Shown here: positions 681 to 12,306 of the stretch, one piece after another
How positions within the stretch are numbered: position 1 is the stretch's first letter
Layout: each line of letters starts with the position of its first letter
Assembly: GCA_012514555.1 (NCBI GenBank)
Contig: JAAZAB010000165.1
Coordinates: 1-13,429 of the forward strand
Source of the DNA: Lentisphaerota bacterium
GTDB taxonomy: Bacteria; Verrucomicrobiota; Kiritimatiellia; JAAZAB01
Length of the DNA: 13,429 bases
Direction: 5' to 3'
Translations under genes and position numbers: made by a program
The notes under the pieces: generated by a model
Database searches by the model: none
What the model was told of the DNA's origin: nothing
What the model saw: only the letters and a program-made list of their open reading frames with translations

Positions 681-1289
681 ATGGAAACACTGGGCGCCTG
701 GTGGAACGGGCTGGGAACCGTGAACCAATGGTTTTACGGCGTGGCCTTCTTTTTCGGCGCGATCTTTCTGTGGCAGATGATCATGTCATTCATCGGCCTG
801 GAACATGACGTGGGGCTTGACACCCAGGTCGAGCCCGACTCAGTTCACGATACGCCGGACGACGCCACCCAGACCCTGGCGGCTTTCAAATTAATCAGCA
901 TCCGCTCAATCCTGGCCTTTCTGACGCTCTTCTCCTGGGGCGGCGCATTGTACCTCAATCAAGGCCTGCCCATGGGCCGCGCCCTGGGCTACTCCATTCT
1001 GTGGGGCCTGGCAGCCATGCTGGCGGTTTCTTTTATCTTCAGCCTGATGGGCAGAATGACGGAGTCCGGAAACATAAAAATCGGCTCTTGCCTGGGCGTC
1101 AACACCACTGTTTATCTCGACATTCCAGCCGGAGGCGTGGGAGAAATACGCGTCCCTTGCAGCGGAGTCATGACCCACATCAAGGCGCGCTCCGCAAAAG
1201 GCGACGCCATAAAGGCAGGCACGCCCGTCAAGGTTGTGCGCCTGGTGGAATCCAACACCGTTGAAGTCGAAACTGTCGAAGCCGGATAG
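681..1289 (+). CDS. NfeD-like membrane protein (YuaF/YqiJ family): N-terminal transmembrane helices plus a C-terminal OB-fold beta-barrel, the usual partner of flotillin/SPFH proteins
   Basis: 202 aa. There are hydrophobic helices (GVAFFFGAIFLWQMIMSFIGL, ILAFLTLFSWGGALYL, ILWGLAAMLAVSFIFSLMG) and then a soluble C-terminus (VYLDIPAGGVGEIRVPCSGVMTHIKARSAKGDAIKAGTPVKVVRLVESNTVEV) typical of the NfeD short form. A GGAGA RBS lies 7 nt before the ATG, and the gene sits immediately upstream of a flotillin gene. Confidence 0.75.
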   Translation: METLGAWWNGLGTVNQWFYGVAFFFGAIFLWQMIMSFIGLEHDVGLDTQVEPDSVHDTPDDATQTLAAFKLISIRSILAFLTLFSWGGALYLNQGLPMGRALGYSILWGLAAMLAVSFIFSLMGRMTESGNIKIGSCLGVNTTVYLDIPAGGVGEIRVPCSGVMTHIKARSAKGDAIKAGTPVKVVRLVESNTVEVETVEAG

Positions 1290-1345
1290 CAACGCAGCCA
1301 GCCGCCGGGCAGGCTGAACGCGAATTACGAAGAAAGGAACGCGAT

Positions 1346-2920
1346 ATGAGCGAAATGCTTTTGACCAGCCTTTGGATGATCGGACAGGTTCAGCCGGATG
1401 GGAATCCCGCGCCATTCCTGGTCTTTTTCCTGCTGTTGTTCCTCATAGTCATGCTGATGACTTTCGTGCGCCGCTACAAGCGCTGCCCAGCGAACAAGAT
1501 ACTGGTAATATACGGCAAGACCGGCAGCGGCGCGGCCAAGTGCATTCACGGCGGCGCCAAGTTCGTCTGGCCCCTGCTTCAGGCGTACGATTTCCTGGAC
1601 CTCGAGCCGTTCGTGGTGCCCATAGATTTGTCCAACGCGCTTTCGCAGGAAAACATCCGCGTGAGCGTTCCCACCTCGGTCACCGCCGCCATATCCAACC
1701 AGCCGGGGATCATGGAAAACGCGGCCGTCCGCCTGCTCGGGCTTACGACCCAGCAGATACAGACCCAGGCCCAGGACATCATCATCGGCCAGATGCGCGC
1801 GGTCATAGCCACCATGCGCATCGAGGACATCAACCGCGACCGCCAGGCCTTCATGAGCAAGGTCAACGAAGCCGTGGCCGTCGAGCTGGAAAAGATCGGA
1901 CTCTCCCTCATCAACGTGAACATCCGCGACCTTGACGACGAGTCCGGCTACATCAAGGCCATAGGCCGCAAGGCTGCGGCCGAGGCGGTCAACCAGGCCA
2001 ACGTGGACGTTGCCGAGCAGGAAAAGACGGGACAGACCGGCGTTGCGGAACGCCAGCGCGACCAGCGCGTTGCCGTTGCGGCCGCCACGGCGGACGCCCA
2101 GATCGGGGAATGGGAAGCCGAAAAGCGCAGGCGCCAGCAAGTTGCCGCGGCCCAGGCCCAGGCCGAGATCGGGGAAGCCGCGGCCGACCGTGAAAAACGC
2201 CAGAACATAGCCCGCCTCGACGCGGAAGCCGTCCATGCCGAGACCGACGCCAACGCGCAGAAGGCCCGGTTCCGCGCCGACCAAAAGGTTGCCGAAGAGG
2301 AATCGCGCAACAAGGGCGATTCCGCGTCGCGCGAAGCGGACGGCGCAATCCGCGTGGCCCAGGAGACAGCCGAGAAGAAGGCTGAAGACGCCCGCGCAAT
2401 CCGCGAGCAGTCCCGGCTCAACGCCGAGATCGTAGTGCCGGCTGAAGCGCAGCGGAAAAAGATAGTGATCGGCGCGGAGGCCGAGAAGCAGCAGGCCGTG
2501 CTCGTGGCCCAGGGCCAGGCCGACGCCATGCTCGCCAGGATGACGGCCGAGGGGCGTGGCGTCCAGGCAGTGCTTGACGGCAAGGCCCAGGGCTACCGGA
2601 ACCTCGTGGCGTCAGCCGGCGATCCCCAGGTTGCGACCTCGCTGCTCATCATTGAGAAGCTCCTGGAAATATCGCACGTCCAGGCCCAGGCCATCCAGAA
2701 CCTGCCGCTCGAAAAGATAGTTGTCTGGGACGGCGGCGGAACGGGCGCCGGCGGCGTGGCGGAGCTCGGCAGGAGAATCATGGGCGTGCTCCCGCCAATG
2801 CACGAGCTGGCGCGCCAGGTCGGCCTTGATTTGCCCGAATTCCTCGGCAAGATCAATGCCGCCGCAAAGGCGGAGGCGGCAAAAACGCCGCCTGAATCCG
2901 ACACAGGGGCCAAGTCCTGA
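1346..2920 (+). CDS. Flotillin-like SPFH/band-7 protein (FloT/YqiK family) with a long Ala/Glu/Gln-rich coiled-coil region
   Basis: 524 aa. It has an N-terminal TM segment (PFLVFFLLLFLIVMLMTF) and an SPFH core (KILVIYGKTGSGAAKCIHGGAKFVWPLLQAYDFLDLEP...ENIRVSV...IIGQMRAVIATMRIEDINRDRQAF). An extended AEAEKRRRQQVAAAQAQAEIGEAAADREKRQ-type EA-repeat coiled coil follows. A GAAAGGAA RBS precedes the ATG. Confidence 0.85.
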   Translation: MSEMLLTSLWMIGQVQPDGNPAPFLVFFLLLFLIVMLMTFVRRYKRCPANKILVIYGKTGSGAAKCIHGGAKFVWPLLQAYDFLDLEPFVVPIDLSNALSQENIRVSVPTSVTAAISNQPGIMENAAVRLLGLTTQQIQTQAQDIIIGQMRAVIATMRIEDINRDRQAFMSKVNEAVAVELEKIGLSLINVNIRDLDDESGYIKAIGRKAAAEAVNQANVDVAEQEKTGQTGVAERQRDQRVAVAAATADAQIGEWEAEKRRRQQVAAAQAQAEIGEAAADREKRQNIARLDAEAVHAETDANAQKARFRADQKVAEEESRNKGDSASREADGAIRVAQETAEKKAEDARAIREQSRLNAEIVVPAEAQRKKIVIGAEAEKQQAVLVAQGQADAMLARMTAEGRGVQAVLDGKAQGYRNLVASAGDPQVATSLLIIEKLLEISHVQAQAIQNLPLEKIVVWDGGGTGAGGVAELGRRIMGVLPPMHELARQVGLDLPEFLGKINAAAKAEAAKTPPESDTGAKS

Positions 2921-3072
2921 TGCGGTTCAACCCAGATTAGCGTTTGAAAAATGAACTATACTTACTACGGGCTGGGAGTATGTCAATACGCCTTCACCCG
3001 CTGCGCCTTGCATCTGCCGCACTCTGACCAATCGCAAAATCCGGGTTCCAAGGCCGCGGACGGCAGGCCCGA

Positions 3073-4317
3073 ATGAAGATACGCATCCTGTTCCGGTCGC
3101 TGGAGAACCGGAACTTCAGGCTTTTTTACGCCGGCCAGGGCATTTCGCTCATCGGCACCTGGATGCAGATGACGGCGGTCGCGTGGCTCGTTTGGCGAAT
3201 GAGCCACAACGCCATGCTGCTGGGCCTTGTCGGGTTCGCCTCGCGGATACCCACTTTCGTGCTTGCGCCTTTTGCCGGCGTCCTGATCGACCGCATGGAC
3301 CGGCGCCGGCTCGTCATGGCGACGCAGGCGGTGGCGATGCTCCAGGCGCTGGCGCTGGCCGGCCTGATGTTTTCCGGGTTCCTCGAGGTCTGGCATATCA
3401 TCGCGCTTTCGCTCCTGCTCGGGTTCATCAACTCTTTCGACGTGCCGGCGCGCCAGTCGTTCTTCATCCAGATGCTCGATCGGCGCGAGGATATCACGAA
3501 CGCCATTGCCCTCAACTCCACCATGGTCAACGGCGCACGGCTGATCGGCCCCTCGATTGCTGGGATCCTGATAGCGGCCTTCGGCGAAGCCGTATGTTTC
3601 CTGCTCAACGGCTTAAGCTACATCGCCGTCATTGCCGGGCTGATGATGATGCGCGTCCGTTCCAATCCGCGTCCGGCGCTGAAGACCGCGGCGCTGGACA
3701 ACCTCATCGAGGGCTTTCGCTACACCTTCGGCTTTCCGCCGATCCGCGCGCTGCTGCTCCTGGTGGCGCTGGTCAGCCTGGCGGGCGCGTCATACACGCA
3801 GCTCCTGCCCATATTCGCGCAGCAGGTCCTGCGCGGCGACGCGCGCACGCAAGGGTTCCTGGTTTCCGCGGCCGCGGTCGGCGCGCTCGGCGGGGCGCTA
3901 TACCTGGCCTCGCGCAGCAGCACGCGCGGGCTCGGGCGGCTCATAGCCATTGCGCCCACTGTTTTCGGCGCCGGCCTGATCGCCATGGGATTGTCGCAGC
4001 GGCTCTGGCTGACGCTGATGATTATGCCGGTCGTCGGGCTCGGGCTGATGGTGCAGATGGCTTCGACAAACACCATGCTGCAGACGATCGTCGAGGACGA
4101 CAAGCGCGGGCGGGTGATGAGCTTCTACTCGATGGCTTTCATGGGAATGGTTCCGCTCGGCAGCCTGGGCTCCGGCATCCTGGCGCGATTCATCGGAGCG
4201 CCATGGGTGGTGATTCTCGGCGGCGCCTGCTGCATCGCGGCATCGGCCGTCTTCGTCCAAAGGCTGCCGGCCCTGCGCATCCTGGTCCACCCTGTTATGC
4301 CGGCGGATGCACAATGA
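3073..4317 (+). CDS. MFS transporter, DHA3/EntS-like (enterobactin-exporter family), ~12 TM helices
   Basis: 414 aa. The N-terminus (FRLFYAGQGISLIGTWMQMTAVAWLV) and motifs (LLGLVGFASRIPTFVLAPFAGVLIDRMDRRR, NGLSYIAVIAG) are characteristic of the MFS_3/EntS family. Hydrophobicity is consistent with 12 TM helices. Confidence 0.85.
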   Translation: MKIRILFRSLENRNFRLFYAGQGISLIGTWMQMTAVAWLVWRMSHNAMLLGLVGFASRIPTFVLAPFAGVLIDRMDRRRLVMATQAVAMLQALALAGLMFSGFLEVWHIIALSLLLGFINSFDVPARQSFFIQMLDRREDITNAIALNSTMVNGARLIGPSIAGILIAAFGEAVCFLLNGLSYIAVIAGLMMMRVRSNPRPALKTAALDNLIEGFRYTFGFPPIRALLLLVALVSLAGASYTQLLPIFAQQVLRGDARTQGFLVSAAAVGALGGALYLASRSSTRGLGRLIAIAPTVFGAGLIAMGLSQRLWLTLMIMPVVGLGLMVQMASTNTMLQTIVEDDKRGRVMSFYSMAFMGMVPLGSLGSGILARFIGAPWVVILGGACCIAASAVFVQRLPALRILVHPVMPADAQ

Positions 4318-4377
4318 CGCTCTCCCCCAGCCTGTGCCGCCATCCAACCCGTCAAAACAAGGAGGGCGCACGGCCTC

Positions 4378-4429
4378 GGCCGCCGGACATGCGCGGCAAA
4401 TCGCGCCACGCCGTGGCGCGCTACAGAAG
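4378..4429. terminator. 52-bp repeat element, copy 2 (inverted relative to copy 1), between the convergent MFS and tad-like operon 3' ends; the - strand RNA would read GC-rich hairpin + AUUUG, a likely bidirectional or operon terminator
   Basis: The 36-bp core CGGCAAATCGCGCCACGCCGTGGCGCGCTACAGAAG (4394-4429) is the reverse complement of 139-174. The palindrome CGCGCCACG-C-CGTGGCGCG lies at 4403-4421. It sits in the 135-bp gap between the MFS stop (4317) and the ATPase stop (4453). Confidence 0.5.
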
Positions 4430-4452
4430 GCAAGGCGGGCGCGCATCCGGCT

Positions 4453-5541
4453 TCAGGCGCGCTCATCGGCCCATGGCTCGGGCAGGTTGAGGCGCCTGGC
4501 CTCTTCGGCGAAGCGCGGCGTTGCGCCGGTGAAAACGTGATGCCCGGCCACCTTTCCATCGGGCGCGAGGCCTTCGGGCCTGAAGACATAAATATCCTGC
4601 ATTTTATAGACGCCCTCCTCGAGCCCGAGGACCTCGGAAATATGCGTTATTTTGCGGGAGCCGTCGGAGAGGCGGGCGGTCTGGATAATCACGCCGATCG
4701 CGCCTGCGACCATGGCGCGGACAGCCGGCATGGGGATGTCAATCCCGCTCAGGAGCGTGCAGGTTTCGAGGCGCGAGAGCGTGTCCAGGGGCGTGTTCGC
4801 ATGAATGGTGGACATGCTCCCGGCATGGCCAGTGTTGAGCGCCTCGAGCAGGTCCAGAGCCTCTCCGCCCCGCACCTCGCCGATCACCAGCCGGTCCGGG
4901 CGCAGGCGCAGGGCCGCTATGAGCAGGTCGCGTATCGTGACCTCGCCCTTGCCGTCCTTGTCGGGCTTTCGCGTCTCGAAGCGCACGGTGTGCGGCTGCT
5001 GGAGTTGAAGTTCGCTGGCGTCCTCGATAACCAGGATGCGTTCGCCCGGGTCTATGATGCCGCTGAGCACGTTCAGGACCGAGGTTTTTCCCGACGAGGT
5101 GGCGCCGGAAACGACAAGGTTCTTGTGGAGCCGGACGATGGTCTCGATCAGGCGCACACCGCCTTCCGAAATGCTGCCGAACCTGACAAGCTCGGCAGGC
5201 GTCAGCTTCTCCTTTCTGAACTTGCGTATGGAAACCACCGTTCCGGTCCGAGACAGCGGGGGTATGACGGCCTCGAGGCGGGAGCCGTCCGGCAGGCGCG
5301 CTTCGAGAATGGGGTTTTCCTCGCCGAGCATGCGGCCGACGCTCCGGGCAACGTTCATGGCGGCCGCTCGCAGCGCGTTCTCGCTGCAGAAGCAGGCATT
5401 GGTGCTCTCGATCCGGCCCCGCCGCTCCACGTAGATTCGGTCCGGGCCATTGATCATTATTTCCGAGACATCAGGATCGTCAAGGAACGGCGCAATCGGC
5501 TCGAAGAAAAGATACAGGAATGCATTCGGATCGGTTGGCAT
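4453..5541 (-). CDS. Short CpaF/TadA/VirB11-family secretion ATPase (N2 + C-terminal ATPase domains only, no N-terminal extension); the second ATPase of the operon
   Basis: 362 aa. Walker A is GATSSGKTS, the Asp box/Walker B are [12 protein letters not shown] and [13 protein letters not shown], and the His box is [13 protein letters not shown]. The N-terminal [22 protein letters not shown] is the typical start of the CpaF N2 domain. An AGGGGA RBS lies 8 nt upstream, and only 10 nt separate it from the upstream gene stop. Confidence 0.85.
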
Positions 5542-5551
5542 CGAGTTTCCC

Positions 5552-7444
5552 CTATTTGCTCAAAAACGGCTTTTCACGGCTTGGAATGACTTCCTCGCCG
5601 CCGGCCGGAAAACTGCCCTTGCCCCGGCCGCCCGCCTGTTCGGACGGCTGCGCAGGGGCAGCCGCCCGGCCCGGGGCTGATTCTCCGCCTTTGGGCGCCT
5701 GGTCCTTGGCCGCCGGAGCCGCCGGAGCGGGCTGCGCCGGGAGAATGGAAGCGCCGCTTTTGAGACGCCGGTCGATCACGGCCCGGGCGTCCTGTTCGGC
5801 AGGCAGGAGCGCGCGCAGTTCCTTGAGGCGTTTCCGGGCCATGGCGGCATACTGGTCCGAGGATGAGGCCACATCGAGAATCTGCATGTAAAGGGCGGCC
5901 GCGTCGCGAACGGAGCCGCGCGACTCGAGCACATAGGCTTTGTTGAAGGCTGTCCCGGTAAAAGCGGCGATGTCCATGCGCAGCCGCGCAAACTCGGCAT
6001 CATGCCCGGGTGACCCGGCGGCAAAGCCGGCGATCAGGAGACTTTTCAGCGCTCGGCTGTTCAGCCTGGCCGCCTCGTAGAGCTCGCCGCGCGCCTTGGC
6101 CGCGGCGGCGTCCGCCATCGCTTTCCGGCCATCCTGCTCGTATTCCTCACGGCCGGGGCCCAGGCGCTTGCGAAGATCGTCCATTCTGGCCAACGCGATC
6201 GTCCTGGCGCCGGGATAGTTCCGGAACGCCGGAGAATCCAGGAGAGCGGTCCCGGCCTCGATGGCCGCGACGTCATTGCTTTGCGCCAGAAGCGCGTCCA
6301 GCGCGGCAGCCTGGGCCAGTAGATTCCCGCGGGCGGCGAGGTCGGCTTTCTGGGAGAAGGACAAGCCGGCCTGCGCCGCCAGGCCAGAGCACACGGACTG
6401 CGCGTCCGGTATCCGCCAGGCATTGAACATGTCATCGGCCTGCTTGAACTGGCCGGCAAGCTCAATCTGGCGCCCGGCCAGGCTGACCAGGTCCTGGCGC
6501 TTGTACTCGTTCAACACCTTCGCGCCGTCAAGAACGGAGAGAACGTCGGCATATCGGGCCTGTTGAAGAAATGCGGCGGCCTTTTCGCAGGCCTCCTCGC
6601 CGCGGAGGTAGGCTTCGAATTCCGACACCTGGCCGTCCGCGGGCGACATTGTCTTCATGCGCTCCAGCGCGCGCCGGGCGCGGGGGATGTCGCCGCTGTC
6701 AATGCACTCCATGCCTTCGGCAAAAGCCTCCTGCATGTGCGCGCCCCGGATTGCGCGCAGGAGGCCGAGCGCCTGAGTATTGCGCGGGTCCAGCGCGACC
6801 GACTCGTTCAACAGGGCCGCGGCCGCCAGGTAATCGTTGCTTGCATAAAGCGCATACTGCCCCTGCTGCATCAGCTGCGCGGCGCGGCGATAGATGTCGG
6901 CCCTGCCATTCAGGGCGGACCCCTCGCCGGGGCCGGGGCCGGCCGGGGCGTTGGACTCCGCGTTAAGCGCCGGAGCAGGCCCGGCCGCCGGGCTGTCGTC
7001 CGCCTGCGGCCGGGCTCTCTTCAACATCCAAGCGGCCAGGGTCGCCAGGCACAGGACAAGGAGAACGGCAACGAGCATCTTGTTCCTGGATCCGGGCGCG
7101 GCCGCGCCGACCGCTCCCTCGTGCGCCGGCACGATGAAGTTGAAATCTCCCAGCGCGACCTGTTTTCCGGGCCGGAGATTCGCTTCGCGCCGGGCAAGCC
7201 GGCGCCCATCCACCTGCACGCCGTTCACGCTGCCAAGGTCGCGGATGTAAAGGCCCCGGGGCGTGAGCGCAAGCTCGGCGTGCCTTGGCGCAAGCGAAGG
7301 GGAATCCAGGCAAAAGTCGCAGAGCGCATCGCGGCCGAGAACGCGCGGCTTGCCGCCGAGAGGCAACTCCAACTCAAGGACGTCGGAGCCGTCGCGGCGC
7401 TTCAGCGCAATTTTCAGGGAAGGCACAAGGTTTTCTTCATTCAC
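5552..7444 (-). CDS. Bitopic membrane protein: N-terminal cytoplasmic FHA domain, single TM helix, large periplasmic Ala-rich TPR-like repeat domain
   Basis: 630 aa. The FHA signature is RVLGRDALCDFCLDSPSLAPRHAELALTPRGLYIRDLGSVNGVQVDGRRLARREANLRPGKQVALGDFNF (the GR...SR-H...S-NG...GD pattern). The TM helix is MLVAVLLVLCLATLAAWML. The C-terminal ~480 aa are helical and Ala/Leu-rich with TPR-like periodicity (AAALLNESVALDPRNTQALGLLRAI..., AAFLQQARYADVLSVL...). A GGAG RBS is present. Confidence 0.7.
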   Translation of the reverse strand: MNEENLVPSLKIALKRRDGSDVLELELPLGGKPRVLGRDALCDFCLDSPSLAPRHAELALTPRGLYIRDLGSVNGVQVDGRRLARREANLRPGKQVALGDFNFIVPAHEGAVGAAAPGSRNKMLVAVLLVLCLATLAAWMLKRARPQADDSPAAGPAPALNAESNAPAGPGPGEGSALNGRADIYRRAAQLMQQGQYALYASNDYLAAAALLNESVALDPRNTQALGLLRAIRGAHMQEAFAEGMECIDSGDIPRARRALERMKTMSPADGQVSEFEAYLRGEEACEKAAAFLQQARYADVLSVLDGAKVLNEYKRQDLVSLAGRQIELAGQFKQADDMFNAWRIPDAQSVCSGLAAQAGLSFSQKADLAARGNLLAQAAALDALLAQSNDVAAIEAGTALLDSPAFRNYPGARTIALARMDDLRKRLGPGREEYEQDGRKAMADAAAAKARGELYEAARLNSRALKSLLIAGFAAGSPGHDAEFARLRMDIAAFTGTAFNKAYVLESRGSVRDAAALYMQILDVASSSDQYAAMARKRLKELRALLPAEQDARAVIDRRLKSGASILPAQPAPAAPAAKDQAPKGGESAPGRAAAPAQPSEQAGGRGKGSFPAGGEEVIPSREKPFLSK

Positions 7445-7462: not shown

Positions 7463-8491
7463 TCAGGGGTTGAATCTCACCCGTTCCGCCTCGTCCCATT
7501 TCCGGGCCCCGTACTTGAACTGCCATGAATTGCGGTCCGGGAACAGGCGCATGATGCAGTCTGCCGCATCGAAGGCATCCGGCTTGTTTCCAAGCCCGAG
7601 CGCCTGTTCCAGGCGTCGGCGCTGGCGGTAGAAAGTTTCCTCGCGGAAGAAGAAGCACAACTGCATCTGCGCCAGGGCCGCATCATATTCGGCGGGCCTC
7701 GGGTCCCGGCGGTATGTGGCGGCCAGCGCCGCGGCGTACTGCTGCATGGCGCCGTTGTAGTAATTCACGTTGGAGTCGCGCCCCATGAGAAGTTCATTAC
7801 CGTAGCGGATGGCGTTGGCGACATCGTTGCTTGTCGCAAGGGCCGGAAGCCGCCGAACAAAGGATTCCCCCGCCAGCCTGGCGTCCTGCAAAGGCGCAAT
7901 GGAAACGCCCTTGATGAAGCCGTCGAACAAGTCCGGACCGTTCGTCAAGGCCGCGGGAAAGACGAACAGGAACCTGTAGGAGTCCGTTTCGTTTTTGACG
8001 ACCAGGCCCAGGACGGCCATCTTTGCAGTGTCGCCCGAGAACCTGACGGCCGGGCATCCGAAAAGGTTGGTTGGCGCCCTGTCCAGGAGCACGAACCCGG
8101 GATAGACAAGCCGCGCGCTGCTTTGAAAATTATCCACCTCGGTGTCCATGTCCAGGAGGCAGCGGCAGGGGTCGCGGTTCGCGTCATAGAACATCGTCGC
8201 CTCTGTTCCGGGGCACTCGAACTGGCGCTTGGCCAGCATGCTGAGGGACTCCATCTGCACCCAGCCCGGCGGCATCCGGATAACGGCGGCGAACTCGCTG
8301 TCCTCGTACAAGTCCGGAGTTTTTTTTGCGGAATCGCGGCAGCCGGCGCTTCCGGCGGCCGCGAGCGCGAGCAGAAGCGCGGGCGCCAGGCGCATTATAA
8401 AATCCGGCAGGCGCATCCCGCGCCCGGATCCGTCCGACGGCATGAGCGCGCGCGGGGCGCCGGGCAATTCCGTATCAGGGCTCATTATCAT
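7463..8491 (-). CDS. Putative lipoprotein of unknown function (lipobox LAAAGSAGC); start codon uncertain (internal ATGs at 8416 and 8395 give a cleaner signal peptide)
   Basis: 342 aa in the longest ORF. MRLAPALLLALAAAGSAGC fits a type-II signal peptide with a lipobox Cys. I recognise no conserved domain. The gene is tightly packed in the operon, 18-19 nt from each neighbour. Confidence 0.55.
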   Translation of the reverse strand: MIMSPDTELPGAPRALMPSDGSGRGMRLPDFIMRLAPALLLALAAAGSAGCRDSAKKTPDLYEDSEFAAVIRMPPGWVQMESLSMLAKRQFECPGTEATMFYDANRDPCRCLLDMDTEVDNFQSSARLVYPGFVLLDRAPTNLFGCPAVRFSGDTAKMAVLGLVVKNETDSYRFLFVFPAALTNGPDLFDGFIKGVSIAPLQDARLAGESFVRRLPALATSNDVANAIRYGNELLMGRDSNVNYYNGAMQQYAAALAATYRRDPRPAEYDAALAQMQLCFFFREETFYRQRRRLEQALGLGNKPDAFDAADCIMRLFPDRNSWQFKYGARKWDEAERVRFNP

Positions 8492-8870: not shown

Positions 8871-9794
8871 TCATTGGTTCATGTAGTACTGGATCATGAC
8901 AGGCCCGATCAGCATGATCAGGATTGACGGAAAGATGCAGCTTAGCAGGGGCAGCAGCATTTTGACGGGCGCTTCCATCGCCAGCTTTTCCACATATTGC
9001 GCCTTGCGCTCCCGGAACTCGCGGGCCTGGATGCGAAGGAGCGGGCCGAGCTCCGTGCCCAGTTCCTCGGCCTGGGTCATCATGTCGATTGTCACGGTAA
9101 TCGGCTCAATGCCTATGCGCCTGGCCATGTCCTTCATGGCATTGACGCGCCGCGCGCCGAGGTGGATTTCGTTGAGCAGGCGCATCAGCTCCTCCGAGAG
9201 CGGGCTCAGCGGAATGTTGCCCACGATCCGCTGGATCGCTATGGTCATGTCCATTCCGGATTCCATGGACAGCGTCAGCAGATCGAGAAAAAATGGCCAG
9301 TCGGACAGAATCTGGCGCCGGCGCGCGGCCCGGGCATTGTCGAGCGGCAGCACGGGAAAGAAGAAGGCCGCAAGGGCCAGGATGGCGACAAAGAGCAGGC
9401 CCGAGCCCAGGTCGGACTCCCGCTCGTGCGCGCGCTGGAAAACGAAGAGCAATGCCGCGCCGAGCGCGCCGGAGCCCAGCGCAAGAACGAACTGCAGCGA
9501 AACCATCTCCTCGGGCGTGAGAGCGGTGTCCACGCCGGCCTGGCGCAGCCGCGTGCGCATTCCGCGCACGAGGGCGTTATCCGCGCCAAGAACCCTGTTG
9601 AGGAGCCGCGTCATTCCGTGCAGCAGGGGTGTGATCCAGAGCATCCAGCCCACGCGCTTGCGCCGGTATTGCGACAGGAACATCCCGTAGCCTTCCATGC
9701 GCTTTGCCAGGAGCGAATAGGCCAGCATGACGGTGGCCGCGAAAAGCAGGATCAAGCCCAGCGTCATTTCATTGAACAATTCGCTCATGCCCAC
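8871..9794 (-). CDS. tadC: Tad/Flp platform protein TadC-like (GspF/T2SSF family, polytopic inner-membrane protein)
   Basis: 307 aa. It has an N-terminal TM helix, a cytoplasmic T2SSF domain (TLSMESGMDMTIAIQRIVGNIPLSPLSEELMRLLNEIHLG...), and C-terminal TM helices (LLPLLSCIFPSILIMLIGPVMI). It starts 6 nt after the tadB stop. Confidence 0.8.
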   Translation of the reverse strand: MGMSELFNEMTLGLILLFAATVMLAYSLLAKRMEGYGMFLSQYRRKRVGWMLWITPLLHGMTRLLNRVLGADNALVRGMRTRLRQAGVDTALTPEEMVSLQFVLALGSGALGAALLFVFQRAHERESDLGSGLLFVAILALAAFFFPVLPLDNARAARRRQILSDWPFFLDLLTLSMESGMDMTIAIQRIVGNIPLSPLSEELMRLLNEIHLGARRVNAMKDMARRIGIEPITVTIDMMTQAEELGTELGPLLRIQAREFRERKAQYVEKLAMEAPVKMLLPLLSCIFPSILIMLIGPVMIQYYMNQ

Positions 9795-9800
9795 CCCGGC

Positions 9801-10664
9801 CTAAAGACGAATGGATACTATCTTGCGGATCATGAAGAACCCGATAACGTCAAGCACCACGACTGCCGCCAGCATGGCCCAGCCCATCATTGTAGTGTAC
9901 ATCAGCCGCATCAACTCCGGGTTGATGAAATGGATGATGATGCCCAGGGCCACGGGAATAAGCACCACGATGATGGCCTGGAGTTTGCCCTGGCTTGTCA
10001 GGGCCTTGATCTTGCCGTCTATCCGGTTGCGCTCGCGTATCGTGTCGCTGAGCTGGCCGAAGACCACCGGCAGTTCGCCGCCGGTCTGTATCGTCAGGCG
10101 GACCGCGGCGACGAGAAGCATCAGGTCCGCGTCGTTCAGGCGCTTGTTCATGTTTTCAAGGGCTTCCTCGATGCGCACGCCGAGGTTGATCTCGCGCACG
10201 GTAAGCCGGAACTCCTGCCCGGCCGGGTCCGGGAGCTGGCGCGCGGCCAGGTCAAGAGCCTGGAGAAAAGAAAAGCCGCTGCGCAGTCCGTTGCTGATGG
10301 TGTTCATTGCGGCGATGAGCTGGGAATTGAACTTCTCACGGCGCCGGGCGACCTTCATGTGAATGAGAATGTCCGGGATGAACGCGCCAATGCCGGCGGC
10401 CGCGGCGGCCAGGATAAAAGGGACGGGGCGCATGAGGCCGGACGACACGACGAGCGCGATGACGCCCAGCAGGAAGGCCGATATCACCTTCATATGCATC
10501 AGGCGCTCCACGGGAATGAACGAGGCGCCCTGCTGGATCAGCTCGGCCGTGCGGCCAAGGTAACGCTCCTCGTACTCGCCATAGCCGCCCGCAAGCGAGC
10601 GGAGCAGGAGAAAAAACAGCAGGCTGACCGAGATGAACGAGACCGCTAGAATTACTGCCAGCAT
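9801..10664 (-). CDS. tadB: Tad/Flp platform protein TadB-like (GspF/T2SSF family); the real start is at the ATG at 10664, not the longer track ORF reaching 10874
   Basis: 287 aa from MLAVILAVSFISVSLLFFLLL. The T2SSF domain is FSFLQALDLAARQLPDPAGQEFRLTVREINLGVRIEEALENM...LTIQTGGELPVVFGQLSDTIRERNR. A GGGGA RBS lies 7 nt upstream. The longer ORF-track version overlaps the upstream ATPase gene in another frame. Confidence 0.8.
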   Translation of the reverse strand: MLAVILAVSFISVSLLFFLLLRSLAGGYGEYEERYLGRTAELIQQGASFIPVERLMHMKVISAFLLGVIALVVSSGLMRPVPFILAAAAAGIGAFIPDILIHMKVARRREKFNSQLIAAMNTISNGLRSGFSFLQALDLAARQLPDPAGQEFRLTVREINLGVRIEEALENMNKRLNDADLMLLVAAVRLTIQTGGELPVVFGQLSDTIRERNRIDGKIKALTSQGKLQAIIVVLIPVALGIIIHFINPELMRLMYTTMMGWAMLAAVVVLDVIGFFMIRKIVSIRL

Positions 10665-10680: not shown

Positions 10681-12306
10681 TCATTTGACGACGAAAATGC
10701 CCATGTCCACGTCCACGCCCCGCTCGCGCAGGCGCATGATGAAGTTCGGGATCGTGCCCGTGGGCTGGAATTCGCCCACAACCCGGCCCTCGGCGTCGTA
10801 GCCCGACTGGCGGAACTCGAATATGTCCTGGAGCGCGATCTCTCCGCCCCCGGCCATGGGCAGCACCTCGGCAATGGCCATGACCTTTCTTGAGCCGTCC
10901 GAAAGGCGCGAGACCTGGCAGACCAGGTTCACGGCCGCCCCGATCTGCTGGCGGATGGCGGCCACGGGCAAATCCATTCCCGACATCAGCACCAGCGTTT
11001 CAAGGCGGGCCATCACATCCTTCGGCGAGTTCGCGTGCACGGTGGTGAGCGACCCGTCATGCCCCGTGTTCATGGCCTGCAGCATGTCAAGGGCCTCCCC
11101 GCCGCGGCACTCGCCGACAACTATGCGGTCGGGCCGCATGCGCAGCGCGTTCCGGACGAGCGTGCGTATGGAAATCTCGCCCTTGCCTTCGATGTTCGGC
11201 GGGCGCGCCTCCATGCGCACCACGTGCTCCTGGTCAAGGCGCAGCTCCGCGGCGTCCTCGATGGTCACGATGCGCTCGGCGCGCGGAATGAACGAGGACG
11301 CGATGTTGAGGAGCGTTGTCTTGCCGGAGCCGGTGCCGCCCGAGATGACCGTGTTCTGCCTGCGCTCGACCGCGATCCTGAGAAAAGCCGCCATCGCGGG
11401 GCTGAGCGTCTTGAACCCCACCAGGTCCTCCATCGTCAGCGGCTTTGCGGGGAACTTGCGGATGTCGAGGGATGCGCCGTCAATGGCCACGGGCGATATC
11501 ACCGCGTTCACCCTGAAACCGTCCGGAAGGCGCGCGTCAACGATCGGGGAGCTTTCGTCAATGCGCCGCCCGAGCGGGCCCACGATGCGCTCGATGATGG
11601 CCTCGAGCTGGCCGGGGCTGTCAAACTTGCGGTTCGAGGGCGCAAGCCTGCCCCTGCGCTCGACAAAAATCCTGTTCCGGCCGAAGCACATTATCTCCGT
11701 GATCTCCGGGTCGTTGATCAGGTCGTCGAGCGGGCCGAAGCCGAGCACGTCGTGCACGACCTCCTTCTGAAGCACATCGGCCGCGACGCCCTGGCGCTCG
11801 GCCTCGGCGCTCAGCTCGCCGATTATTTCGCCGATGAGCTTGCGGGCTCGCTGCCTGAGCTCCAGGGATGCCGCGGCGCCAATGGTGTCGAGGCTCTTGA
11901 GGTCCATCCGGTCGAGCAGTATCTCGTGAACCTTGCGCTTGAGCTGCTCGCGGGCGCCCGCGTTCTCCCCGATATCCGGCCTGGCGGCGGCGGCGGCATC
12001 CTCGACGTCGGACGCCTCCTCGAAGTAGATCATGTTCCATTCGCCGACGGTCAGCTTGTCGCCATTGTGCAGGCGCTGCTCGCGGCCGGCCACCGGGAGG
12101 CCGTTCACGGAAACGGGATGGCGCGAGGACACCGGCTGGACATAAAGCCAGCCGCGCACGTTCAGCACTCGGCAATGCATGCCGGCGACACCCTTTGCCG
12201 GGAGGCGAAGGTCGCAGGAGGACGACGACCCGACCGTGACGAACTCCCTGGTTTTCAGGAAAGACAGGTCCGTCTGCGTTCCGTCGGCATGGAGAAGGTA
12301 AATCAC
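10681..12306 (-). CDS. cpaF: CpaF/TadA-family secretion ATPase with an N-terminal FHA domain fused in place of the usual N-terminal extension; probable GTG start at 12306
   Basis: The FHA-like region is VIYLLHADGTQTDLSFLKTREFVTVGSSSSCDLRLPAKGVAGMHCRVLNVRGWLYVQPVSSRHPVSVNGLPVAGREQRLHNGDKLTVGEW. The CpaF N-terminal helical region follows (EQLKRKVHEILLDRMDLKSLD). Walker A is GGTGSGKTT, Walker B is DRIVVGECRGGEA, and the His box is TGHDGSLTTVHAN. The track ORF (to 12498) overlaps the secretin gene. The GTG at 12306 has a GGTGGTG RBS ~7 nt upstream and leaves a 25-nt gap after the secretin stop. Confidence 0.85.
   Translation of the reverse strand: MIYLLHADGTQTDLSFLKTREFVTVGSSSSCDLRLPAKGVAGMHCRVLNVRGWLYVQPVSSRHPVSVNGLPVAGREQRLHNGDKLTVGEWNMIYFEEASDVEDAAAAARPDIGENAGAREQLKRKVHEILLDRMDLKSLDTIGAAASLELRQRARKLIGEIIGELSAEAERQGVAADVLQKEVVHDVLGFGPLDDLINDPEITEIMCFGRNRIFVERRGRLAPSNRKFDSPGQLEAIIERIVGPLGRRIDESSPIVDARLPDGFRVNAVISPVAIDGASLDIRKFPAKPLTMEDLVGFKTLSPAMAAFLRIAVERRQNTVISGGTGSGKTTLLNIASSFIPRAERIVTIEDAAELRLDQEHVVRMEARPPNIEGKGEISIRTLVRNALRMRPDRIVVGECRGGEALDMLQAMNTGHDGSLTTVHANSPKDVMARLETLVLMSGMDLPVAAIRQQIGAAVNLVCQVSRLSDGSRKVMAIAEVLPMAGGGEIALQDIFEFRQSGYDAEGRVVGEFQPTGTIPNFIMRLRERGVDVDMGIFVVK

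Follow-up and report, generated by a model that had tools for sequence, protein, structure and literature searches.

The Lentisphaerota contig JAAZAB010000165.1, analyzed here over its whole length of 13,429 bp (the window), carries on its minus strand one tightly packed series of genes for a Tad-like machine, and within this series lies the gene of a 630-residue protein, referred to below as the target. It combines an N-terminal FHA (forkhead-associated) domain, a single transmembrane (TM) helix and a large C-terminal region of the tetratricopeptide repeat (TPR) kind. The target is a rare, uncharacterized, KilD-like FHA-TM-TPR accessory protein of Tad-like clusters with a class III CpaF motor in bacteria of the PVC (Planctomycetes-Verrucomicrobia-Chlamydiae) group. 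A role as a dedicated bitopic accessory or scaffold protein has good support, and it is on balance probable that the protein acts specifically as a bitopic inner-membrane accessory subunit dedicated to the Tad-like machine that is driven by a class III CpaF motor. The domains, the single TM helix, the repeat fold, the rarity of the family, its synteny and the architectural parallel with the orthologue of Myxococcus KilD were all directly observed or computed. NCBI lists the same protein as NLE66595.1 ('FHA domain-containing protein [Lentisphaerae bacterium]'), the source being a Lentisphaerota metagenome-assembled genome (MAG). Full-length relatives share 94% and 62% identity with it, and approximately 13 further ones 19-29%; the identical database entry and these relatives indicate that the open reading frame (ORF) is a real gene.

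The order of parts proposed in the initial annotation, FHA domain, single TM helix and helical repeat, was borne out by Pfam, Kyte-Doolittle hydropathy and AlphaFold2 (AF2) modeling. Pfam PF00498 matches residues 35-99 (E 4.5e-13, 49.9 bits against a cut-off of 20.7), and in the AF2 model residues 9-104 form a beta sandwich for which Foldseek returns the FHA domains of GarA, OdhI, and Ki67. No signal peptide or lipobox was found at the N-terminus, which is occupied by this folded domain. The 19-residue TM segment has a mean Kyte-Doolittle value of 2.69, against 1.15 for the next best segment of the protein, and is covered by an AF2 helix spanning residues 119-144; by the same measure each of the 16 family members has one hydrophobic segment above 1.2. 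The linker that follows has a pLDDT (predicted local distance difference test score) of 29-41 and differs in length among the aligned family members. At the other end of the protein, the disordered tail closes on the motif E-E-V-I-P-S-R-E-K-P-F (nt 5564-5596, minus strand), which is kept in the close clade, where E618, V619, I620, P621, E624, P626, and F627 are invariant in alignment A1; it is loosely echoed in the relative P0006 and may represent a short linear docking motif.

Between linker and tail the protein is all-helical over approximately 385 residues. When residues 180-575 were modeled alone with AF2 on a 17-sequence alignment, the repeat fold on which the initial annotation had made its case depend was recovered as an all-helical, TPR-like solenoid (pLDDT 91.7; predicted template modeling score 0.72) of 15 helices, arranged as seven long/short hairpins and a capping helix, with the tandem hairpins that define TPR folds. 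Units 1-4 and 7, of approximately 48 residues each, resemble one another, and units 5 and 6 are divergent. The window protein on its own remains below the Pfam TPR cut-offs (TPR_2, E = 1.1); consensus-TPR designs are found with the family profile (CTPR3, E 9e-13), two family members exceed the Pfam cut-offs at the first and last repeat (P0017, TPR_2, 34.7 bits; P0008, TPR_14, 30.1 bits), and generic multi-TPR proteins align to positions 10-105 of the C-domain profile. Searched against the sequences of the PDB, the shallow C-domain profile A2 gave zero matches even at E <= 10, and the deeper profile A6 retrieved just generic or designed TPR proteins and apolipoprotein-like helices. The label 'TPR' is right in kind, but the repeat is not canonical, and neither the PDB profile searches nor Pfam yielded a characterized homologue of the domain. 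Identities as GltG, Amuc_1098 or FhaB were considered and rejected, their NCBIfam scores being far below the cut-offs and the similarity confined to the FHA or TPR-like parts.

The family defined by this domain is small. When the C-domain profile was run exhaustively with HMMER against 1.84 billion cluster representatives (E <= 1e-3), it matched only 20 proteins, some 15 of which are 514-630 aa long and share the FHA, single TM and helical layout. A word-indexed homologue search with the whole target protein returned just three close relatives and one FHA-only match, and a scan of GTDB genomes with family alignment A1 found no relative. The clusters follow a common order: (A24 prepilin peptidase), TadE, a gene of unknown function, RcpC/CpaB, secretin, FHA-fused CpaF (FHA::CpaF), TadB, TadC, an optional DUF192 gene, a lipoprotein gene and the target gene. 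This order was seen in loci L001, L002, L006, L008, L091, and L092 and, in part, in L003-L005 and L013, and in every recovered locus with sufficient flanks the target gene lies at or near the cluster end, after the lipoprotein gene. The arrangement holds at 19-29% protein identity and in GC-rich as well as AT-rich hosts, and no family member was found outside Tad-like clusters among the loci recovered. Synteny conserved at such low identity and across base compositions indicates that the target is a dedicated part of this type of machine, as the initial annotation had supposed in assigning it to a secretin/Tad-type apparatus. In the window, 18 nt separate the lipoprotein gene from the target and 10 nt the target from the next gene, a spacing that points to one operon. 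In L002 (4634-6537, on a contig of approximately 3x coverage) the orthologue is split into two ORFs, one for FHA and TM and one for the C-domain, whose overlap, in different frames, falls inside the Pro/Ala linker; this most likely reflects a frameshift or an assembly error and not a real division of the gene.

A CpaF ATPase with a fused FHA domain is a recognized architecture, termed class III (PMC12019362), of which the Kil system of Myxococcus xanthus, a Tad-like prey-killing system whose KilF ATPase has an N-terminal FHA domain, is the best-studied example (PMC8460266). The Kil cluster is rich in FHA proteins and includes, downstream of kilF, the gene kilD (MXAN_3108), annotated 'FHA; TPR'; KilD is needed for prey killing, and it forms prey-contact foci in each kil deletion mutant tested (PMC8460266). 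An orthologue of KilD, P0037, was found by synteny in a Myxococcus sp. MAG (L089, 9001-11313), where the order 250-aa FHA protein, A24 peptidase, BON-secretin, FHA::T2SSE, P0037 and polA matches MXAN_3104-3108. In P0037, two FHA domains are followed by a single hydrophobic helix (297-315) and then by a C-part, large and helical, that contains 13 cysteines, against none in the N-part, and four related Myxococcaceae homologues have 10-11 against none. An asymmetry of this kind points to a bitopic protein with a periplasmic, disulfide-bonded C-part, and suggests that KilD-type proteins are bitopic rather than cytoplasmic; by analogy, it supports an N-in/C-out orientation for the architecture class. 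Proteins of 2xFHA-TM-TPR-like layout were likewise found in Tad clusters of two MAGs, one of Myxococcota (L009) and one of Bdellovibrionales (L076), and the L009-type C-domain is homologous to that of the target family over its full length (hhalign 95.9%, E 6.4e-9). Apart from the Kil work, literature searches found no description of an FHA-TM-TPR protein belonging to a Tad system.

Topology, binding partners and an assembly or coupling function are what we infer from these observations. Given a folded N-terminal FHA domain, a single TM helix and the lack of a signal peptide, N-in/C-out is the default orientation, and a cytoplasmic FHA domain with a periplasmic TPR-like domain is the simplest reading. 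The FHA domain would then dock in the cytoplasm on a component of the machine, most plausibly the ATPase or the TadB/C platform, in a manner that may not depend on phosphothreonine (pThr) in the window clade. The TM helix would anchor the protein in the inner membrane, and the flexible Pro/Ala linker would carry the solenoid into the periplasm, where it could serve as a protein-binding platform for candidate partners such as the adjacent lipoprotein, RcpC/CpaB or the N-domains of the secretin. The target might thereby link the motor in the cytoplasm with those parts of the machine that lie in the periplasm and outer membrane, or nucleate its assembly, for which the KilD foci offer a possible parallel.

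Several points count against this picture. Summed over the 16 members, 57 lysine and arginine residues lie within 15 positions N-terminal of the TM helix and 54 within 15 positions C-terminal of it, so that the positive-inside rule is undecided for all of the family; the C-terminal ones include KRAR, immediately adjoining the helix. The cysteine asymmetry on which one can draw for the KilD orthologue and homologues close to it is not present in the target family. KilD is itself listed in a published table as a 'cytoplasmic multidomain protein' (PMC8460266). Comparison of the target C-domain with the Myxococcaceae KilD homologue set (A7) was not significant (hhalign 37.5%, 87 columns); the family is best termed KilD-like in architecture and gene position, with homology to the C-domain of KilD itself unproven. 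Acidithiobacillus and some other loci with FHA::CpaF have no FHA-TM partner within 10 kb, and such a partner is therefore not obligatory for a class III CpaF. Lastly, the host is an uncultured bacterium represented by a MAG.

The coordinates of the target, its parts and the neighboring genes of the cluster are collected in Table 1.

Table 1. The target gene, its domains and the other genes of the Tad-like cluster in the window
Feature	Position (nt)	Strand	Basis and remarks
Target gene, FHA-TM-TPR-like protein, 630 aa	5552..7444	-	GTG start, stop at 5552-5554; NLE66595.1
FHA domain, residues 9-104	7133..7420	-	Pfam, AF2 beta sandwich, Foldseek, residue alignment
Single TM helix, residues 123-141, MLVAVLLVLCLATLAAWML	7022..7078	-	Kyte-Doolittle, AF2
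Pro/Ala/Gly-rich low-complexity linker, residues 145-178	6911..7012	-	Composition; predicted disordered
TPR-like alpha-solenoid, residues 180-563	5756..6907	-	Domain-only AF2 model
Disordered Pro/Ala/Gly-rich C-terminal tail, residues 564-630	5555..5755	-	pLDDT ~30 (AF2)
Second short CpaF-family ATPase, 362 aa, without FHA	4453..5541	-	10 nt downstream of target stop
Orphan lipoprotein (putative), 342 aa, directly upstream of target	7463..8491	-	Invariant G50-C51, alignment A5
DUF192 protein, 115 aa	8511..8858	-	Pfam E 1.6e-18
TadC-like platform protein (T2SSF)	8871..9794	-	Pfam
TadB-like platform protein (T2SSF)	9801..10664	-	Likely true start an internal Met, 287 aa as in L001
FHA-fused CpaF/TadA ATPase, class III	10681..12306	-	Likely GTG start at 12304-12306
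Secretin, C-terminal part, running off contig end	12332..13429	-	Pfam Secretin E 6.7e-30

The closest companion of the target gene is the one that precedes it. The orphan lipoprotein family comprises proteins of 305-342 aa with a helical C-terminal half and an invariant Gly-Cys that ends an N-terminal hydrophobic segment and that we read as a putative lipobox. Matches to its hidden Markov model were found in L001-L008 and L013; in each locus examined, the gene directly precedes that of the target. Neither Pfam nor the PDB yielded a relative, and comparison revealed no relation to the C-domain of the target; the lipoprotein may be the pilotin of the system or a partner of the target. Other Lentisphaerota clusters with FHA::CpaF likewise encode FHA-TM proteins downstream (L010, 11450-12766; L011, 13599-15215; L015, 13944-15623). 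Their C-part is a different one, of approximately 270 residues, and its last 105 or so are similar to the module at the C-terminus of the lipoprotein family (hhalign 83.8%, E 7.9e-6). This likeness could be a domain-fusion link between FHA-TM protein and lipoprotein, and it hints, suggestively and not conclusively, that the two work together in one compartment.

Elsewhere in the cluster, the secretin that is cut off by the contig end has 507 aa in L001 and L091. In the window, L001, L002, L006, and L091, tadC and the lipoprotein gene are separated by the gene for the DUF192 (COG1430) protein; this is not the case in L008. The second, short CpaF-family ATPase is confined to the window clade (L001, L002, L091); in L006 and L008 the cluster closes with the target on that strand, and a second ATPase does not follow. 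Kiritimatiellia, Lentisphaeria, and Verrucomicrobiae commonly have short CpaF proteins with 65-72% identity to this ATPase, and the two motors of the window-clade cluster might divide extension and retraction between them. Converging on the cluster, the plus strand carries NfeD-like, flotillin (Band_7) and MFS_3 transporter genes (681-4317), a trio that is kept in L002 and L091. In these two loci a Peptidase_M28 domain gene with faint FG-GAP matches (760 aa in L091, 614 aa in L002) separates the second ATPase from the MFS gene; in the window, which is without it, just a 136-nt gap lies there (4317-4453).

Among the alternatives, the one that best withstands the evidence is a phosphorylation-gated switch, in which the periplasmic TPR-like domain senses an envelope or contact cue, a Ser/Thr kinase encoded elsewhere phosphorylates a component of the machine, and the FHA domain binds pThr and licenses recruitment or firing of the ATPase, comparable to the PpkA/PppA-Fha1-TssL pathway of type VI secretion systems (T6SS). 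FHA-pThr activation is established for T6SS, and the serine of the FHA motif SxxH is a main phosphate contact. Thirteen of the 16 family members, the more distant ones, retain the full canonical set G-R, S-x-x-H and S-x-N-G, as do KilF, both FHA domains of KilD and the ATPase FHA of L009, and FHA-based signaling has been proposed for Kil clusters in published reviews and in the Kil paper (PMC8460266). In the window clade (the window protein, P0001, and P0002), however, the SxxH serine is replaced by alanine, the target retaining G37-R38, H55 and S72-x-N74-G75 around Ala52. The FHA domain fused to the CpaF ATPase occupies 11990-12306 of the minus strand in the window, 5275-5600 in L006 and 4542-4870 in L008. 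Alignment to the family FHA profile shows that in all three G-R has become G-S, the SxxH serine alanine, and SxNG is gone, and the ATPase-fused FHA of the window lineage is, from these residues, probably phospho-independent. Within 10 kb, the annotations of L091, L006 and L008 contain no Ser/Thr kinase or phosphatase, and TPR solenoids are usually protein-binding scaffolds and not ligand sensors. A pThr switch is thus possible for the family as a whole but, because of Ala52, the degenerate ATPase FHA and the lack of annotated kinase or phosphatase genes in these flanks, doubtful for the target protein and its motor, and we regard the switch as an unlikely account of the target. Structural, phospho-independent use of the FHA domain, as in SctD or EssC, would by analogy be at least as likely. 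The suggestion of the initial annotation that the protein bridges a cytoplasmic phospho-signal to the periplasm is accordingly weakened.

A variant of the dedicated-subunit reading, tentative and in our estimate unlikely to hold in full, goes further in making the target family and the orphan lipoprotein together a trans-envelope nucleation and coupling module that replaces TadZ/CpaE in Tad machines with a class III CpaF. Solenoid and lipoprotein would mark the assembly site, and the FHA domain would recruit the motor; a phospho-independent FHA-FHA or FHA-linker contact is proposed for this step because the FHA domain of the ATPase is degenerate. If true, a KilD-type assembly principle would operate in non-predatory PVC bacteria.

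Less probable is that the target itself stands in for missing TadZ/CpaE, CpaB/RcpC and/or TadD components of a Tad system that has been reduced, and forms a bridge to the second ATPase, as the initial annotation envisaged. CpaB seemed missing because the window ends inside the secretin gene. Longer near-identical contigs show an RcpC/CpaB gene (SAF and RcpC domains) directly upstream of the secretin gene, in addition to TadE- and TadG-like genes, and RcpC/CpaB is found in the same position in L001, L091, L006, and L008, which disposes of that part of the claim; no SAF or RcpC domain match was obtained with the target. The absence of TadZ/CpaE does stand, since no such ParA/MinD-like gene was found in the complete clusters seen, and a recruiting role like that of TadZ is thus conceivable for the target. 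The target itself has no ParA/MinD-like domain, and no P-loop or CbiA/ParA family match was returned for it. TadD is a periplasmic TPR protein, and the target has a TPR-like domain predicted to be periplasmic. TadD-type pilotins, however, are outer-membrane lipoproteins, whereas the target appears bitopic and has no lipobox; the adjacent lipoprotein would be the better pilotin candidate, and a TadD-like role is at least as plausible for it. Placement just upstream of a second ATPase, 10 nt away in the window, is true of the window clade, but L006 and L008 carry the family and are without this ATPase. Replacement of these components by the target is hardly to be expected.

Very improbable, in turn, is a ring builder like SctD (YscD/PrgH) of the type III secretion system (T3SS), in which the target would oligomerize into a closed inner-membrane ring around the platform. 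The likeness to YscD/PrgH drawn in the initial annotation survives in the order of parts, an FHA-fold domain, a single TM helix and a periplasmic domain, which the target would share with SctD (YscD/PrgH/EscD) in a machine that contains a secretin, and Pfam PF16697 (Yop-YscD_cpl) matches residues 26-105 above its cut-off (44.4 bits against 33.2). This match, however, overlaps the stronger FHA match on the same stretch. The resemblance fails beyond the membrane, where SctD has alpha/beta ring-building modules and the target an all-alpha TPR-like solenoid without such modules, and in genomic context, the target cluster being Tad-like (CpaF, TadB/C, RcpC, TadE) and without T3SS genes. That the target is a passenger gene unrelated to the Tad-like machine, for example a general envelope FHA protein, would suit a C-domain without characterized homologue but is contradicted by synteny kept to approximately 20-29% identity in genomes of varied base composition and by a family never encountered outside such clusters in the loci recovered, and is thus scarcely credible.

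FHA-rich Tad-like clusters are known from predators, namely Myxococcus, with its Kil system, and Bdellovibrio. The dedicated-subunit reading of the target extends this partly known theme; it overturns nothing and introduces nothing categorically new. It does define a small, clean family in PVC-group bacteria whose gene position is fixed, as is its lipoprotein partner, documents FHA domains that have drifted from canonical pThr binding in one lineage, and provides testable hypotheses on how a class III CpaF motor may be recruited without TadZ/CpaE.

Among known systems, SctD has FHA domains that lack the pThr-binding residues, which the target family, by contrast, mostly keeps. Fha1/TagH of T6SS resembles the target as an FHA protein encoded in a secretion-machine cluster that may couple a signal to assembly; to our knowledge, no architecture of TM helix plus TPR is established for Fha1. 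The TagH model TIGR03354 gave no match to the target and reached only the FHA domain of the ATPase (29.6 bits against a cut-off of 120), and the PpkA-PppA pathway differs in that no kinase or phosphatase lies near the target. Pilotins of type IV filament systems such as TadD and PilF/PilW are outer-membrane lipoproteins of approximately 250 aa with canonical 34-residue TPRs, whereas the target has a TM anchor after its FHA domain, units of approximately 48 residues and no lipobox, and generic TPR proteins match it as well as PilF does. GltG of Myxococcus gliding motility (NCBIfam NF033760) matches residues 36-166, the FHA domain and TM helix (E 5.4e-6, 25 bits against a cut-off of 650), but the C-terminal regions do not match. 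KilD differs in having two canonical FHA domains, where the target has one with serine replaced by alanine, and a Cys-rich C-part, a pattern that the target family does not share; no orphan lipoprotein or DUF192 gene is visible beside the orthologue in L089, whereas both adjoin or lie near the target, and the target host, an uncultured Lentisphaerota bacterium, is no known predator, unlike Myxococcus. Nonetheless, KilD, as judged from the orthologue P0037, is like the target in combining FHA, one TM helix and a large helical C-part in a single protein, encoded downstream of an FHA-fused CpaF-type ATPase at the end of its cluster.

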